DNA of 63,373 nt, the filler included, from an uncultured Clostridia bacterium (GTDB lineage: Bacteria > CAYTYR01 > UBA6262), in assembly GCA_964441745.1 (NCBI GenBank). It is 3 parts of 3 records of this genome, joined end to end, with 100 filler letters (N's around TTAATTAATTAA, not from the genome) between each part and the next. Parts side by side here need not be neighbours in the genome. Positions count along the whole stretch, not along the records: positions 27,522 to 54,436 come from CAYTYR010000022.1; 2 more parts are not named here. One strand, written 5' to 3'. Of this stretch, positions 27,422 to 47,108 are shown one piece after another. Each line of letters opens with the position of its first letter. Position 1 is the stretch's first letter. The notes beneath the pieces were generated by a model. That model was given only the letters and a program-made list of their open reading frames with translations, was not told the DNA's origin and ran no database searches. Position numbers and translations under genes: made by a program.

Positions 27422-27521
27422 NNNNNNNNNNNNNNNNNNNNNNNNNNNNNNNNNNNNNNNNNNNNTTAATTAATTAANNNNNNNNNNNNNNNNNNNNNNN
27501 NNNNNNNNNNNNNNNNNNNNN
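27422..27521. other. Artificial contig linker
   Basis: N44-TTAATTAATTAA-N44 (stops in all six frames). Confidence 0.97.
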
Positions 27522-41526: not shown

Positions 41527-42621
41527 TTACTTATTTAGTACTTTTATAAATGTTTCTACGACAGTGGCATCGAATTGGGTGCCGCTGTATTTTTTTAGTT
41601 CCGCGATGGCATTATCTTGGCTTAGGCCTTGGCGATAAGGACGGTCAGTAACCATAGCATCATAAGTGTCAGCCACGCAGAGAATCCTGGCTTCTAAGCT
41701 GATGTCTTGATCATGCAACCCCTCTGGGTAGCCGCGCCCGTCGATACGTTCATGATGTTGTTTAATAGCGGTGATGATCCGCGGAGAAAGGCCGATCGGC
41801 CCCACAATTTGCGCGCTCATGGCTGAATGGCCTTTCATTAAAGTATATTCCTCATCGGTTAATTTGCCTGGCTTATTTAATACTGTTTCCGGGATCCCGA
41901 TCTTGCCTACATCATGCAGCAGAGCTGCTTGTTTGATCACTTCTATGGATTCTTCGTCCAGGTTCATGGCTTGGGCGATAGACAGGGCATATTCTCCCAC
42001 TCGGTCTACATGCCCGGCAGTATAATGGTCCTTCGCATTGATTGCCTCGGTCAGGGCATTGATTGCCCCCATGGAAGCATCCCGTAATTTTTTAAATAAC
42101 TGCGCATTATCTATGGCCACTGCTGCCTGGGAAGCAAAAATCTCAAAGATATACTGGTTATCCATATTAAAATAACCTTGTTTTTTTTGGTTGATAGCTT
42201 CCATTACTCCAATGATCCGGTTTTTCACTTTTAAAGGGACGCAAAGAATACTTTTAGTTTTGAATTGTGTGGAATCGTCGAATTTTGAAGCGAAACGCGG
42301 GTCTTTAGAAACGTCATTGATAATGAGGGGCAGCCCGTATTGGGCTACCTGTCCCGCGATGCCTTCGCCTATTTTTACCCGTATCTGTTTGATCTGTTCC
42401 CTTTTTTCACCCAAAGCCACATTAAAATAAAGTTCCTGTTTAGTCTCATCCAGCAACATTAAAGAGCTGGCTTCTGAGCTCACCACTTGAGCGGCTAAGG
42501 TCATGATCAAGTTCAATAAATTATCCAGATCCAAAGTTGAGATAATGATCTTATTCAACTCCAGCAACATGGATAATTCCTGTACGCGTTGTTCTAGGGC
42601 ATCGAAGTCTTTTTGTTCCAT
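41527..42621 (-). CDS. GAF plus HD-GYP cyclic-dinucleotide phosphodiesterase
   Basis: GAF domain (GEGIAG, DPRF, SILCVPL), then KDHYTAGH, LHDVGKIG, HHERIDGRGYP, ADTYDAM, RPYR. Confidence 0.92.
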   Translation of the reverse strand: MEQKDFDALEQRVQELSMLLELNKIIISTLDLDNLLNLIMTLAAQVVSSEASSLMLLDETKQELYFNVALGEKREQIKQIRVKIGEGIAGQVAQYGLPLIINDVSKDPRFASKFDDSTQFKTKSILCVPLKVKNRIIGVMEAINQKKQGYFNMDNQYIFEIFASQAAVAIDNAQLFKKLRDASMGAINALTEAINAKDHYTAGHVDRVGEYALSIAQAMNLDEESIEVIKQAALLHDVGKIGIPETVLNKPGKLTDEEYTLMKGHSAMSAQIVGPIGLSPRIITAIKQHHERIDGRGYPEGLHDQDISLEARILCVADTYDAMVTDRPYRQGLSQDNAIAELKKYSGTQFDATVVETFIKVLNK

Positions 42622-42656
42622 AGCTCAATCCTGGTTTTTTATGATGATCCAGTCTT

Positions 42657-42721
42657 ATTATATAATACAGTAATGAAAACCTCAAGAATTTCTTGCAAAA
42701 TGTTTATCTTTGAGATATAGT
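42657..42721. promoter_or_regulatory. Back-to-back divergent sigma70 promoters
   Basis: Minus strand TTGAGG (42685-42680)-17-TATAAT (42662-42657); plus strand TTGCAA (42693-42698)-17-TATAGT (42716-42721). Confidence 0.6.
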
Positions 42722-42757
42722 AAAATTCACAACTCTATTTCCACTGAGAGGATTTTT

Positions 42758-44011
42758 GTGGCTAAAGCAATGATCAATATCTGGTTGATGCAAGAGCATG
42801 AGCATTTGTTCAAAAATACTATTGTCCCTGAGTTCGAGAAGCTGCATCCGGATATTGAGCTTATCTTAACCACTACCAGCTGGCATTTTTTGTGGGATAA
42901 AGTTGTGATGTTTTCCAAGCGGAAACAGGGGCCGGATGTCTTGCAGATCGGCAGCACTTGGAACGGAGTACTGGCAGAAATCGGAGCCATCAAAGATATT
43001 ACCGTAAACCTGGCCTCTATTGGCGGCCTAGACATCTTCATTAAAGAAGCGGCTAAAACCTGTGTTTTCCCCGGGACTGGCCATGTGTCTTCAATCCCCT
43101 GGTATTTAGATTCCAGGGCGTTATTTTATCGTCAGGAGATATTGGATATCCATGGCTTTACGGCACATGACCTGGGCACACTGGAGAGCCTGGAAAAAGT
43201 CAGCGCGGCGGTACATAACTTCAAAGCCGGAGATAAAATAGTTTCTGCTTTTAGTCTCTCCGGGCAGAAAGATGCCCAATTGATCCATTCACTGGCTCCC
43301 TGGATCTGGAACAATGGGGGAGATTTTATGACTCCGGATGGTAAAAAGCTCAGCTTTAATAGTCCGGCCGCTTTAGCTGGGATGGCAGCTTATTTCTCTT
43401 TTATTGATAAGTATTGTGACAAAGCTTCGATTATGCAGGGGTATGAAACTTTTCTGGATAGTTTTTTCCGTAAAGGTAATAGCTGCCTGGCTTACACTGG
43501 ACCTTGGGTAAACAGCACTTATCTTAATCCTCAACAGGAGCTTTATAATCGGGTCAGTTCGCATATTGAAGCTACTCTAATGCCTGGCGGCCCGGCTGGC
43601 CGGTTTACCTTTTTAGGAGGCAGTAACCTGGCTGTCTCGGAATTTTCCAAACATCCGGACGAGGCTTGGGAACTGGTTAAATTCCTGACACAATTACCGG
43701 TACAGGAAAGGTTCTGCGCCGCTAATCACCAATTGCCGAGCTTAGCTGCAGCTTATAAGACCAAAGGCGTCATCGATAACACGCCACAAAAAATATTCAG
43801 GGATGCCGTACAGCACGGTCGGACTTTCCCTAATCATGCTAATTGGGCGCAGATCGAGGATATCCTCATCGAATATATTCATCGTCTGCTGGTTAGTATT
43901 GCCGAAGGTATTTATACCGCAGATTTAATGCGGGAAAGTATCCAGGAAGCAGCGGCTAAGGGTAACTTGCTGTTAATCCAGGAAGAACAATGGCGTAAGG
44001 AGAAAAATTGA
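42758..44011 (+). CDS. Sugar-type solute-binding-protein fold (SBP family 1) lacking a signal peptide, paralog 1
   Basis: FEKLHPDI, GPDVLQIGSTW, SIPWYLDSRALFY, GPW, FLGGSNL. GTG 42758 follows GAGAGGA and aligns with the start of paralog 2. Confidence 0.8.
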   Translation: MAKAMINIWLMQEHEHLFKNTIVPEFEKLHPDIELILTTTSWHFLWDKVVMFSKRKQGPDVLQIGSTWNGVLAEIGAIKDITVNLASIGGLDIFIKEAAKTCVFPGTGHVSSIPWYLDSRALFYRQEILDIHGFTAHDLGTLESLEKVSAAVHNFKAGDKIVSAFSLSGQKDAQLIHSLAPWIWNNGGDFMTPDGKKLSFNSPAALAGMAAYFSFIDKYCDKASIMQGYETFLDSFFRKGNSCLAYTGPWVNSTYLNPQQELYNRVSSHIEATLMPGGPAGRFTFLGGSNLAVSEFSKHPDEAWELVKFLTQLPVQERFCAANHQLPSLAAAYKTKGVIDNTPQKIFRDAVQHGRTFPNHANWAQIEDILIEYIHRLLVSIAEGIYTADLMRESIQEAAAKGNLLLIQEEQWRKEKN

Positions 44012-45255
44012 CAAGGACAGTGATCAGTGTCTGGTTAACACATGAACATGAGCAGTTGGTACGGCATACTATTTTGCCGGATTTTAAGAAAAAATATCCC
44101 TCCATTGATGTCGTCTTGACCACGACCGGCTGGCGTTTCTTATGGGAAAAAGTGGCCATGTTCTCCAAAAAGAAACAAGGGCCGGATGTGCTGCAATTTG
44201 GCAGTACCTGGAATGGCGCCCTGGCTCAGCTAGGAGCCTTATATGATATCACCAGTCAGGTCAGCGAGATGGGTGGCCTGAATAATTTTGTGCCGGCCAG
44301 TGGCCGGCTCTGTACTTTTCCTGGCAGTAATAAGATTTCCTCAGTCCCCTGGTATGTGGATGTGCGGGCTTTATATTTTCGCAAAAATGTGCTGGATGAA
44401 CACCTGATCTCCAGTCGTGACCTGGAGACCTTGGATGATTTGATCAGAATTTGCGAAAAAGTGCATAATACCAGGATAGATAATAAGGAAATAGCAGCCT
44501 TGGGGGTGATTGGCAATAAGGATGCTCAAATCGTGCATGGTATTGCCCCCTGGATCTGGAATTACGGCGGCAGTTTTTTGCGCGCAGACGGGAGAGAGTC
44601 CGCTTTTCATGAACCAGCAGCATTAAAAGGTTTGGAAATCTATTTTAACCTGATTAATATCTATAGCAAACTAGACCTGCTGGGTCAGAATTATGAAGCC
44701 TTTACCGATTCTTTTGCGGTTAAAGGAGATTACACCTTTGCTTATTTAGGACCCTGGTTGAATAATACCCACCTTAATCCAAAATCACCAACCTATAATA
44801 AAGTAGGTGCCAGTATTCATCCAGTGGTTATGCCTGGCGGCCCGGCCGGGCGTTTCACCTTTATGGGTGGCAGTAATTTAGGTATTTCTTCTTTTTCCCA
44901 CCATCCTGAAGAAGCCTGGTCTTTTGTTGAGTTCCTCATGCAACGCCAGGTGCAGGAACAATTTTGCGCCGCTAATAACCAGCTGCCAAGTTTGCTGGAA
45001 TGTTATACTCCTTCTTATCTCTTGGATACGACACACAATAAGGTGTTTAAGGAATCAGTACGTTATGGCCGAGGGTTCCCGAACAGTCCTTATTGGGCGC
45101 CGATCGAGGATATTTTAATAGATTATATCTATGAGATGTTTATTGCCATCAGGTCACAAAGTTATTCGAAGCAGTTGTTAACAGAAAAGACCTTCGAGGC
45201 GGCAGTGAAATGCAATCTGATCCTTAAAGGCGATCCTTTTATCTTAAGAAGATAA
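44008..45255 (+). CDS. Sugar-type solute-binding-protein fold lacking a signal peptide, paralog 2
   Basis: Colinear with paralog 1 (EHE, QGPDVLQ.GSTWNG, MPGGPAGRFTF.GGSNL, FCAAN.QLPSL, IEDILI). TTGA overlap with paralog 1. Confidence 0.8.
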   Translation: MTRTVISVWLTHEHEQLVRHTILPDFKKKYPSIDVVLTTTGWRFLWEKVAMFSKKKQGPDVLQFGSTWNGALAQLGALYDITSQVSEMGGLNNFVPASGRLCTFPGSNKISSVPWYVDVRALYFRKNVLDEHLISSRDLETLDDLIRICEKVHNTRIDNKEIAALGVIGNKDAQIVHGIAPWIWNYGGSFLRADGRESAFHEPAALKGLEIYFNLINIYSKLDLLGQNYEAFTDSFAVKGDYTFAYLGPWLNNTHLNPKSPTYNKVGASIHPVVMPGGPAGRFTFMGGSNLGISSFSHHPEEAWSFVEFLMQRQVQEQFCAANNQLPSLLECYTPSYLLDTTHNKVFKESVRYGRGFPNSPYWAPIEDILIDYIYEMFIAIRSQSYSKQLLTEKTFEAAVKCNLILKGDPFILRR

Positions 45256-45298
45256 AAAAAGCGGTTACTAGCCGCTAATCATCTAGTATCCGGCGAAT

Positions 45299-45335
45299 AA
45301 AAAAACAGGCTCAAGTTATGAGCCTGTTTTTATTT
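45299..45335. terminator. Bidirectional intrinsic terminator
   Basis: aaaaacaggctca-agtta-tgagcctgttttt between convergent genes. Confidence 0.85.
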
Positions 45336-45371
45336 ATCGGTCAACGGCTAACGGCGAACGATTAACGGTAT

Positions 45372-46532
45372 TTACTGTATTTCCGCGGTTATACTGCTAT
45401 TGGTGACGGTAATGACTTTTACCTTGATGTTTTCGACTTTTGTTTCCAGCTTTTGGGCGATAGCTGAAATACTTTCTATTTCTGTGCCCACCTTAATATC
45501 TGCTATCCCCTGGTTAAAGTTTTCGGTCTGGGTATATTTAACTTCGATCATGTTCCGCAGTCCTTTCAGCACAGCATCTAACTGATTCAAAGAGGTGATG
45601 TTTCTGATGCTGACAGAAATAAAATTAAAAGATTTCAAACGTTGATCCAGCACCCTGGTCAGGTCTTCAGCTGCGATCGTGGCCGCGCGTTTCAAGGCTT
45701 CCCGGCTGGCGGCTTCGCGGGTAGTGCTTACGCCGCCGCTGGAAAAAGTATTACTATAGATTAAGGCGGCCTGTTTGATCTTTAAAACCTTAAAGCTGAT
45801 CGTAGCGCGGTAAGAGATCATCCCGCCCAATCCCTGGTCAGTATTAAAGGACGAAAGGGCATTTCCGGTGATGAGCACATCAGCTTTAGTTATTTCTCCC
45901 ACTTTTTTTTGCTGGTCCAGGTTGTTAAAAAAGTTATCAGCCTTTAGATTTATGGCCGCAGTAGAAAGTTCATTAATATCTACTACTTTATATTGCAGGG
46001 TTAAGAGTTTTTCGTTAAGAGTTTGTTCGCTGATGCCATCGCTTTCCGGCATTCCGTCCACCCGGTCCATAATCACTACTCCGATGCGCAGATTTGAAGT
46101 CGCTGGCGCCGGAGGAGCCAGAAGTCCCAACAGATTAAGGTCTTTATTCACCGCTTCGATCTTGACCAGGGCTTCTATTTTTGTTTTATAAAAATCGCCT
46201 TCTCGTCCTTCGCTGATGATCTTGTATTTTTTTATATAGCCATTAGTTTTAGAGAGGATCTGTTGATCCACCAGTATGGCTTTTTCTACCCTGGTAGCGG
46301 CATTGACATATACGCCTACGGTCATTTCCACGGCATTCCGCTGCGCTTCAGCCAAAGCTCTTTTTTGGGCATCCAAAAGATCGTTATTGAGAACCGAGGC
46401 CAGGCCTTCAGCCAGGACTACTTCAGTAATTTCTTTTTCTTCCTTGGCTGATCCCTTGATATTAGTTCCGCTGGAAGCGCAGGCGCCTAAGACCAAAACA
46501 CTTAATAGGAGTATCAATAATCTATTTTTCAA
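45372..46532 (-). CDS. Lipoprotein with an FlgT-N/LPP20-like N-terminal domain
   Basis: Lipobox LGAC; AEG.A...A...AL..A.RNAVE...GV.V pattern. TTG start after GGAGGA. Confidence 0.65.
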   Translation of the reverse strand: MKNRLLILLLSVLVLGACASSGTNIKGSAKEEKEITEVVLAEGLASVLNNDLLDAQKRALAEAQRNAVEMTVGVYVNAATRVEKAILVDQQILSKTNGYIKKYKIISEGREGDFYKTKIEALVKIEAVNKDLNLLGLLAPPAPATSNLRIGVVIMDRVDGMPESDGISEQTLNEKLLTLQYKVVDINELSTAAINLKADNFFNNLDQQKKVGEITKADVLITGNALSSFNTDQGLGGMISYRATISFKVLKIKQAALIYSNTFSSGGVSTTREAASREALKRAATIAAEDLTRVLDQRLKSFNFISVSIRNITSLNQLDAVLKGLRNMIEVKYTQTENFNQGIADIKVGTEIESISAIAQKLETKVENIKVKVITVTNSSITAEIQ

Positions 46533-46571
46533 ACTATTCCTCCTGGTATATATTCATTATCCCGGTTTGGG

Positions 46572-46636
46572 GATTAAACAGATTAAGGCATAGATGTTTA
46601 TGCAATCGGTGTAATCGCCTTTTTAAATCTGTAATC
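46572..46636. repeat. Family A units in inverted arrangement
   Basis: gattaaacagatt (46572-46584) facing aatcggtgtaatc (46604-46616) and aatctgtaatc (46626-46636). Confidence 0.7.
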
Positions 46637-46661
46637 AAGACATCCTGGGCTTATAGGATGT

Positions 46662-47108
46662 CTATTTGAAATTCATCTTGGTCATTTGTGCCAGTCTCTT
46701 CTTGGAAAGCCGCAGGGTGACAATACAGCCATCGTCAGCAGTCCATTCGGTCTTCAGGACTTCCGCTCCTTTAACTGAGTCGTTGACCAGGGCGGAGATA
46801 CTGGAATCTTTTTCCATAGCCTGGGAGACGGTAATTCCTCCTTCTATTTGCAGTCCTTTAATGATGCCAACCATTTCATATTGGGCCATGGTAATAGCTG
46901 CGGTCCGGCTGGTGGCCTGCTTTTGAGTCTTATTATCCATCTTTTGGTCAGCGGCTCCGATACCGATAGTCTGGATAAAATCAGTATTCTGTATTTCGCC
47001 ATCCAGGGTTTTCTTTAATTCTCCGCCTTTAGTGTGGGTTTGTACACTACTGCAGGCGTTTAGTAATACCAAACTGAATCCCAGCAATATAACCAGTGCC
47101 TTGTTCAT
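46662..47108 (-). CDS. LPP20-like lipoprotein
   Basis: Lipobox LNAC; GIG.A...A.SR.AA...AQ pattern; strong AAGGAGGT SD. Confidence 0.6.
   Translation of the reverse strand: MNKALVILLGFSLVLLNACSSVQTHTKGGELKKTLDGEIQNTDFIQTIGIGAADQKMDNKTQKQATSRTAAITMAQYEMVGIIKGLQIEGGITVSQAMEKDSSISALVNDSVKGAEVLKTEWTADDGCIVTLRLSKKRLAQMTKMNFK

Follow-up and report, generated by a model that had tools for sequence, protein, structure and literature searches.

Known systems and the locus

Solute-binding proteins (SBPs) are textbook extracytoplasmic proteins; inside the cell, the periplasmic-binding-protein (PBP) fold is used to sense small molecules by the sensor domains of LacI-type and LysR-type regulators. In those regulators the sensor is joined to a DNA-binding domain and comes from a different PBP family, whereas the two proteins described here, SBP1 and SBP2, are unfused, full-length and of the family-1 transport type. 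Their genes lie divergent to a gene for a soluble GAF-HD-GYP phosphodiesterase in a 63,373-nucleotide stretch of DNA (the window) from an uncultured Clostridia bacterium (GCA_964441745.1; genome of 2.07 Mb, 98% complete). They carry no export signal and belong to a signal-less SBP lineage that is associated with cyclic di-GMP (c-di-GMP) and two-component genes, not with permeases. The closest described arrangements are NspS-MbaA of Vibrio cholerae and ScrB-ScrC of V. parahaemolyticus, in which, according to the available part of PMC8050422, the gene for a stand-alone SBP homolog is likewise located beside the gene for a c-di-GMP enzyme and not beside a transporter, and the SBP is proposed to pass ligand status to the GGDEF-EAL enzyme by contact.

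The resemblance holds for the principle rather than for the parts. NspS and ScrB work in the periplasm, where each acts on the sensor domain that a membrane enzyme exposes there, whereas the window SBPs and their neighboring enzyme are predicted to be soluble and cytoplasmic; the ligands of NspS and ScrB are polyamines or an autoinducer-like signal, whereas the window SBPs are of the beta-glucoside type, and here we infer the contact. MbaA and ScrC combine GGDEF with EAL, whereas the enzymes beside signal-less SBPs combine GAF with HD-GYP or GGDEF. For the HD-GYP and GAF-GAF-GGDEF partners, Pfam shows only GAF and catalytic domains, with no membrane-region domain. The shared idea is an accessory SBP that steers a c-di-GMP enzyme; the differences would lie in the cellular compartment, the architecture of the partners and the class of ligand.

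A second set of relatives shares the domain logic of the partner enzymes. Lcd1 (GAF-GGDEF, Leptospira) and Tlr0485 (GAF-HD-GYP, Thermosynechococcus) are, however, activated by cyclic AMP (cAMP) directly via GAF and with no accessory binding protein, as far as the accessible part of PMC8846402 describes them. The same part of that c-di-GMP sensing census states PBP-clan domains to be periplasmic, and in the accessible text of an SBP repertoire survey about 1% of the retrieved proteins were predicted to be cytosolic and set aside as non-SBPs (PMC9602780). Full-text literature searches, whose coverage leaves out most subscription journals, turned up no account of family-1 SBPs in the cytoplasm that are paired with GGDEF or HD-GYP enzymes.

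The locus is on contig C22, where window position 44008 corresponds to C22:16487, and comprises the following features:

41527..42621, minus strand: gene for the soluble GAF-HD-GYP phosphodiesterase, 364 residues (Pfam HD_5 and GAF; full-length homolog of the solved structure 4mcw)
42622..42757, no strand: divergent intergenic spacer of 136 nt with promoter-like hexamers in both directions (hexamer scan)
42758..44011, plus strand: SBP1, signal-less family-1 SBP, 417 residues from GTG 42758, with an alternative start at TTG 42710 (Pfam, match to CbpB 7x0i, AlphaFold model)
44008..45255, plus strand: SBP2, signal-less paralog of 415 residues, 50% identical to SBP1 (Pfam, start and stop reading)
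45260..45340, no strand: two hairpins separating SBP2 from the lipoprotein gene convergent to it (folding against shuffles)

Window positions 1-27421 are contig C21, and 27422-27521 are the gap between C21 and C22, across which the gene order is not real.

SBP1 and SBP2 have no export signal

In-frame stops, a hydropathy window and inspection by eye were the grounds for judging the signal absent. The best start of SBP1, GTG 42758, lies 5 nt 3' of GAGAGGA, and upstream the frame is closed by a stop beyond TTG 42710, a start that would lengthen the protein by 16 non-hydrophobic residues. SBP2 starts at TTG 44008, preceded by AAGGAG and with an in-frame TAA three codons upstream. In alignments with the crystallized chains of CbpB and the Thermus protein, residues 6-8 of SBP1 fall opposite residues 5-6, and the AlphaFold model of SBP1 (predicted local distance difference test score 91.7, predicted template modeling score 0.90) forms its first strand from residues 4-11. 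The SBPs therefore begin at the first beta strand, as the first-pass annotation had proposed. The N-terminal signal, lipobox or membrane anchor of exported family-1 SBPs is found in neither protein, and no N-terminal signal is possible on either of them.

As a control, the ordinary sugar SBP of the same genome (contig C2) begins MRQVLTVITLGLLLLTAC, a lipobox, and is followed by two permease genes about 2.5 and 3.6 kb downstream. A word index returned only 20 near-length SBP homologs, and the 14 that were fetched all start at the first strand like SBP1 and SBP2 (14/14). Signal peptides on close homologs would have spoken against the first-pass annotation; the close homologs are signal-less as well. 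A cytoplasmic location of SBP1 and SBP2 is, on this basis, very probable.

The signal-less proteins form one lineage

A pattern scan with one genome per species gave 73 loci, which were split by upstream frame reading and a frame-independent hidden Markov model scan into 28 signal-less and 45 signal-bearing ones. L055 and L065 were counted as signal-bearing for their visible Ala-rich signals, the label of L065 having been set before the tree count; the low signal scores of L054, L061 and L071 are owed to long linkers after their lipoboxes. On a quick, unrooted maximum-likelihood tree of 77 rows, a single change suffices to account for the signal-less label, and the branch that divides the two groups is supported at 99 in the Shimodaira-Hasegawa-like approximate likelihood-ratio test (SH-aLRT). 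A single loss of the export signal is the simplest reading of this unrooted tree. Relatives come from metagenome-assembled genomes (MAGs) labeled Elusimicrobia or Elusimicrobiota. The GTDB order of the source genome holds seven genomes in one family and two genera, and the SBPs are present in all seven, with two to four paralogs each.

A third signal-less paralog of the source genome (C32:1514-2731, L003) is 47% identical to SBP2 and follows an MsrB gene; one or two genes beyond the paralog, a soluble histidine kinase with no sensor domain and a receiver are encoded. The SBP2 ortholog of one sister genome (G016:C1:2642-3868) contains an internal TAG, which may be a sequencing error or mark a pseudogene. 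Tandem arrays of signal-less SBPs occur in other Elusimicrobiota MAGs, with six copies in L012 and three each in L013 and L032, which suggests a diversified set of intracellular receptors.

Relatives adjoin signaling genes instead of permeases

The two groups of loci differ sharply in their neighbors. A permease lies directly downstream or adjacent in none of the 28 signal-less loci, versus 38 of the 45 signal-bearing ones, all of which have a signal or lipobox; the seven exceptions are L024, L025, L028, L034, L039, L045 and L051, and L045 is at a contig end. Conversely, a GGDEF or HD-GYP match is found nearby in 17/28 signal-less and 0/45 signal-bearing genome loci. The window SBPs follow the signal-less pattern: a profile search of the genome contigs gave no BPD_transp_1 permease match on contig C22, which bears out the earlier remark that the pair has no permease. 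Homologs that adjoin permeases, or that show no linkage to signaling proteins, would likewise have spoken against the first-pass annotation; they adjoin signaling genes, not permeases.

The commonest partner is a diguanylate-cyclase-type GGDEF protein, encoded directly downstream on the same strand in 11 of the 28 signal-less loci (L019, L020, L026, L027, L033, L035, L036, L038, L052, L053 and L067). Within the GGDEF-paired subclade, this holds for all 11 evaluable loci, L030, L037 and L041 ending at contig edges. The spacing between the SBP and GGDEF genes ranges from an 8-nt overlap (L035 and L036) to 110 nt among the nine pairs with both genes called. The partners are GAF-GGDEF proteins of 481-525 residues (Pfam, ten scanned) with two GAF domains each, and the GGDEF motif is intact in 10/10 of the scanned proteins. 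These loci come from genomes labeled Elusimicrobiota, Omnitrophota and Spirochaetota.

Other signaling genes accompany signal-less SBPs elsewhere. An HD-GYP gene is adjacent in five signal-less loci, divergent as in the window in L006, L007, L008 and L010, and upstream on the same strand as a receiver (REC)-HD-GYP gene in L017; in L013, an HD-GYP gene lies 2.2 kb from the signal-less SBP. L032 encodes a PAS-GAF histidine kinase and a receiver after three SBPs, and in L014, which holds an ortholog of the third paralog, a 265-residue kinase without a sensor domain stands one gene on, followed by a receiver. Counting the window itself, the GAF-HD-GYP gene is divergent beside the SBPs in five of the seven genomes of the order (window, L006, L007, L008 and L010).

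A metagenome scan, covering 80 loci out of more than 502 relatives, gave a similar picture. Eighteen of the 80 loci were signal-less, and ten of these had a GGDEF gene downstream (L126 and L127 are one sequence); six others were too short to judge because of contig ends, and two evaluable, window-like loci had no GGDEF gene. The remaining 62 metagenome loci gave no GGDEF or HD-GYP match.

Fold and ligand pocket

As the first-pass annotation had recognized, SBP1 and SBP2 are SBP-fold paralogs: both score above the Pfam cut-offs for SBP_bac_1 and SBP_bac_8 over their full length. NCBIfam has no family for them and gave only sub-threshold matches (GanS, 24 bits against a cut-off of 700). Among solved structures, beta-glucoside and cellodextrin SBPs come closest. 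The family profile matches CbpB of Clostridium thermocellum (4.3e-88), the Thermus beta-glycosides-binding protein (7c63; 9.7e-84) and the sophoro-oligosaccharide binder Lin1841 (4.9e-44) in the PDB, SBP1 alone matches CbpB 7x0i from residue 8 onwards (1.5e-54), and the same entries rank first in a Foldseek search with the SBP1 model, which gave template modeling scores of 0.89-0.92 to beta-glycoside/cellodextrin SBPs. CbpB, the Thermus thermophilus protein and Lin1841 (5ysb) thus share with the window SBPs a full-length fold and family and have most pocket residues in common.

The pocket comparison covered 40 signal-less and 36 signal-bearing relatives, aligned and read in SBP1 numbering. W9, W42, W46, D60, W115, D118, R120, H177, W182 and W184 are conserved in at least 90% of both groups, and W68 in 38/40 signal-less and 30/36 signal-bearing rows. 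The pocket residues kept across both clades are W42, W68, D118, R120, H177, W182 and W184. W42, W68 and D118 match Thermus W41, W67 and E117, which were mutated in PDB entries (W41A, W67A and E117A in the titles). Two Trp stack on glucose in CbpB, according to the accessible part of PMC9601137, and W42 of SBP1 would be one of them if the numbering offset of 48 residues that we infer is right. The alignment suggests a pocket that is kept in outline but altered, and whether its ligand is of the beta-gluco-oligosaccharide-like class is, to our judgment, an even call.

Cys at columns 102 and 149 (SBP1 numbering) is found in at least 85% of the signal-less rows versus at most 15% of the signal-bearing ones, and may point to a redox or metal site or to a feature specific to the cytoplasm; at column 149, the window SBP1 carries Ser.

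Sugar-related genes around the pairs

Three loci (L020, L026 and L126) have a common layout, consisting of an exported SBP with two permeases in either order, a glycoside hydrolase, the SBP/GAF-GGDEF pair and a phosphorylase of glycoside hydrolase family 94 (GH94); the glycoside hydrolase precedes the pair in L020 and L026 and follows it in L126. L019 shows the layout starting at the glycoside hydrolase. In L035, a PF10091/CBM9 protein and a MalK-type ATPase precede the pair. The transporter in L020, L026 and L126 already has its exported SBP, so the internal SBP is most readily understood as a sensor of imported sugar.

GH94 genes were present in 10/10 other signal-less-SBP genomes checked, versus 2/14 well-known control genomes, a comparison not adjusted for the base rate in these phyla. 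The source genome encodes two GH94-domain proteins. One is an open reading frame (ORF) of 2,929 residues (C8:64282-73071; L086:4283-13072) in which PF10091 is combined with a GH94 catalytic domain and two stretches of GH94 supersandwich, a layout and size that resemble those of cyclic beta-1,2-glucan synthases; the other has 919 residues. Beta-linked gluco-oligosaccharides are therefore expected in the cytoplasm. Open frames of 2,120-2,935 residues with a GH94 match also occur in three sister genomes.

The divergent phosphodiesterase and a second candidate partner

The 364-residue enzyme matches HD_5 at residues 190-354 (1.9e-40; 138.8 bits against a cut-off of 27.2) and GAF at residues 31-170 (2.1e-18; Pfam). 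No hydrophobic segment was seen by eye, in agreement with the earlier description of a soluble GAF-HD-GYP protein. Its motifs HVDR, LHDVGK, HHERIDGRGYP and DTYDAM, residues of which presumably bind metal, read as intact in the alignment, and its orthologs are 82-88% identical. Over residues 14-362, it matches 4mcw_A (8.9e-65), which we take to be PmGH, the GAF-HD-GYP protein of Persephonella marina that is active on c-di-GMP. The two proteins have the same GAF plus HD-GYP architecture, and the metal and GYP motifs of PmGH are intact in the window enzyme; we know of no SBP partner for PmGH. As the enzyme also matches the cyclic GMP-AMP (cGAMP)-specific HD-GYP protein 5z7c (3.6e-37), its predicted activity by homology would be the hydrolysis of c-di-GMP or cGAMP. 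The GAF domain may provide the enzyme with a sensor of its own. This GAF is 56-58% identical to the GAF in frames of 529-540 residues in three sister genomes, which are probably orthologs of the 523-residue GAF-PAS histidine kinase of the source genome.

The source genome encodes 16 HD-GYP proteins among about 1,890 ORFs, about 13 GGDEF matches and one class III nucleotide cyclase. One of its proteins (C20:15581-17038) is a full-length ortholog of the GAF-GAF-GGDEF partner found beside SBPs elsewhere (4e-140). The cyclase gene stands in a one-strand row (C20:8474-19323, L084) that starts with a CBM30 membrane protein and a 390-residue membrane protein; it is followed by a PAS-GAF hybrid kinase with two receivers, two single receivers, a MshEN-T2SSE ATPase, a T2SSF platform protein and a 192-residue protein with a pilin-like N-terminus (by eye). 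From its gene content, the row has the appearance of a pilus locus under c-di-GMP control that includes a glucan-binding module.

Proposed function and competing explanations

We consider a functional link of the signal-less SBP family as a whole to c-di-GMP and two-component signaling to be likely. For the window proteins themselves, we favor on balance the reading that SBP1 and SBP2 are cytoplasmic beta-gluco-oligosaccharide receptors acting by contact on soluble c-di-GMP enzymes. They would be descendants of exported beta-glucoside/cellodextrin SBPs of ATP-binding cassette (ABC) transporters that have lost the export signal and the permease link and could now serve as stand-alone intracellular ligand receptors. 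The ligand would be a cytoplasmic beta-linked gluco-oligosaccharide, e.g., cellobiose, a cellodextrin or a sophoro-oligosaccharide, and ligand-induced domain closure could alter the contact of the SBP with soluble signaling enzymes, so that sugar status would set the c-di-GMP level. Candidate partners are the divergent GAF-HD-GYP enzyme and possibly the GAF-GAF-GGDEF cyclase on C20; that SBP1 and SBP2 act directly on the former is a tentative proposal, at best evenly balanced. The idea of repurposed receptors tied to cyclic-dinucleotide signaling, put forward in the first-pass annotation, is supported at the family level, where the neighborhood link is strong, and less certain for this particular pairing, as the GAF-HD-GYP gene is absent in two of the seven genomes.

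Several observations weigh against the receptor reading. The position equivalent to Thermus W177 is Trp in 34/36 signal-bearing but only 3/40 signal-less rows and is Ala in both window SBPs, so the ligand may differ from that of the solved relatives. The GAF of the phosphodiesterase resembles cyclic-nucleotide-binding GAFs (CyaB2, 1ykd, 7.3e-31; PDE5, 6e-28). With 16 HD-GYP genes in the genome, a single SBP/HD-GYP adjacency would arise by chance at about 2%, the C20 cyclase is not beside an SBP, and gene adjacency in subclade A may trace to one ancestral event. L009 and L011 keep the SBPs with no GAF-HD-GYP ortholog, the syntenic site of these incomplete MAGs being also without the gene; the best HD-GYP matches genome-wide are 38% and 35% identical, versus 88% and 83% in the L006 and L010 genomes. 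One longer-protein search with SBP1 found no fusion of an SBP to a signaling domain, which is weak evidence; its sole match was an SBP-permease fusion at 27% identity. A docking module shared by the partner enzymes was considered and rejected, as the enzyme GAF matches the partner cyclase GAFs (1.3e-11) about as well as another GAF of the genome (2.2e-11).

The alternative that survives best is non-signaling: the SBPs would handle, buffer or chaperone sugars in the cytoplasm, such as beta-1,2-gluco-oligosaccharides from the giant glucan-synthase-like protein, while the GAF-HD-GYP enzyme would be regulated separately through binding of a cyclic nucleotide to its GAF, and the divergent layout in the window would be non-functional. 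The two GH94-domain proteins of 2,929 and 919 residues speak for it, as do the strong matches of the enzyme GAF to cyclic-nucleotide GAFs, the class III nucleotide cyclase and the cAMP-activated GAF-HD-GYP protein Tlr0485, cited in the consulted portion of a review (PMC8846402). It is also favored by the 16 HD-GYP proteins of the genome, by the L009 and L011 genomes, which dispense with the enzyme, and by L009 and L010, where an SBP is followed by a CsgG-like lipoprotein gene rather than by a signaling gene. However, the tight, often overlapping SBP/GAF-GGDEF pairing recurs across very divergent lineages, a family with no signaling role would hardly account for the further pairings with REC-HD-GYP, a PAS-GAF kinase and a sensor-less kinase, and the HD-GYP gene is kept divergent in five of the seven genomes at 82-88% identity. 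We regard this explanation as unlikely, if the most serious competitor.

According to a second alternative, the SBPs would be outputs that bind c-di-GMP or another nucleotide from the neighboring enzymes and relay it, e.g., to sugar uptake or metabolism. Gene adjacency is silent on direction, the partner cyclases already hold two GAF sensor domains, and the systematic loss of one pocket Trp in the signal-less clade indicates that the ligand has changed in some respect. Yet most sugar-pocket residues, several Trp included, are invariant across the exported and signal-less clades, no known c-di-GMP-binding motif was seen, although no search aimed at one was made, and the SBP/cyclase pairs are located within loci for the uptake and phosphorolysis of sugar, in keeping with sugar as the input; we therefore hold the output role to be very unlikely. 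Less probable still is that the SBPs are exported without an N-terminal signal to serve an unlinked ABC importer, for although ten BPD_transp_1 permease matches occur on other contigs of the genome and orphan SBP genes distant from transporters are known (from the accessible part of PMC9602780), the classical SBP of the genome has a normal lipobox, the signal loss is clade-wide and goes with the loss of adjacent permeases (0/28 versus 38/45), and the L020, L026 and L126 loci already hold an exported SBP for their own permeases.

Beyond the receptor reading for SBP1 and SBP2, a broader one can be sketched, which we think rather unlikely in its full extent. The signal-less SBPs would then be a widespread, so far undescribed class of trans-acting cytoplasmic sensors that lost export once, radiated in Elusimicrobiota and neighboring uncultured lineages, and dock onto soluble signaling enzymes, namely GAF-GAF-GGDEF cyclases, GAF- or REC-HD-GYP phosphodiesterases and sensor-less histidine kinases, so that the amount of beta-gluco-oligosaccharides, whether imported or self-made, is translated into c-di-GMP. 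In the source genome, the phosphodiesterase and the cyclase, the latter being the one beside the CBM30 protein and the MshEN pilus ATPase, would be pushed in opposite directions and thereby switch attachment to glucan substrates.

If true, the proposed function would be a new input route to c-di-GMP, with intracellular sugar sensing by an accessory protein, and would explain how GAF-only enzymes and sensor-less kinases gain a specific signal. It would also offer a modular sugar-to-second-messenger switch, of interest for uncultured glucan-degrading bacteria and for biosensor design. For annotation, the name "extracellular solute-binding protein" is wrong for the signal-less clade.

Transcription signals and flanking genes

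The TTG start of SBP2 at 44008 overlaps the TGA stop of SBP1 (44009-44011), the overlap expected for the translational coupling that had been suggested for the pair. In the spacer between SBP1 and the HD-GYP gene, promoter-like pairs point both ways, TTGCAA-17-TATAGT on the plus strand (42693..42721) and TTGAGG-17-TATAAT on the minus strand (42685..42657); hexamer matches in the region are, however, at chance level (9 found versus 8.7 expected). The back-to-back promoters announced earlier are plausible, and the hexamers in the 136-nt spacer serve as leads only.

Downstream of SBP2 are two hairpins, the first at 45260-45276 and the second, set between an A-run and a U-run, at about 45290-45340. 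The fold energy of the stretch is -32.9 kcal/mol (z-score -6.9; 0/200 shuffles fold as well), so the SBP pair probably ends at a terminator, as had been noted, and a minus-strand terminator-like site lies at 45276..45260. Judged from its flanking runs, the second hairpin is likely a two-way terminator for the SBP2 and lipoprotein genes.

The lipoprotein pair convergent to the SBPs (window 45372-47108, minus strand) encodes a 386-residue FlgT_N/LipL46-like protein and a 148-residue protein without a family, and keeps the same place in L006-L011. A CsgG/LpoB-like lipoprotein gene lies 3' of a single SBP on the same strand at L009:9238-9801 and L010:5959-6522, and in L009 the spacer between the two genes is 1 nt.

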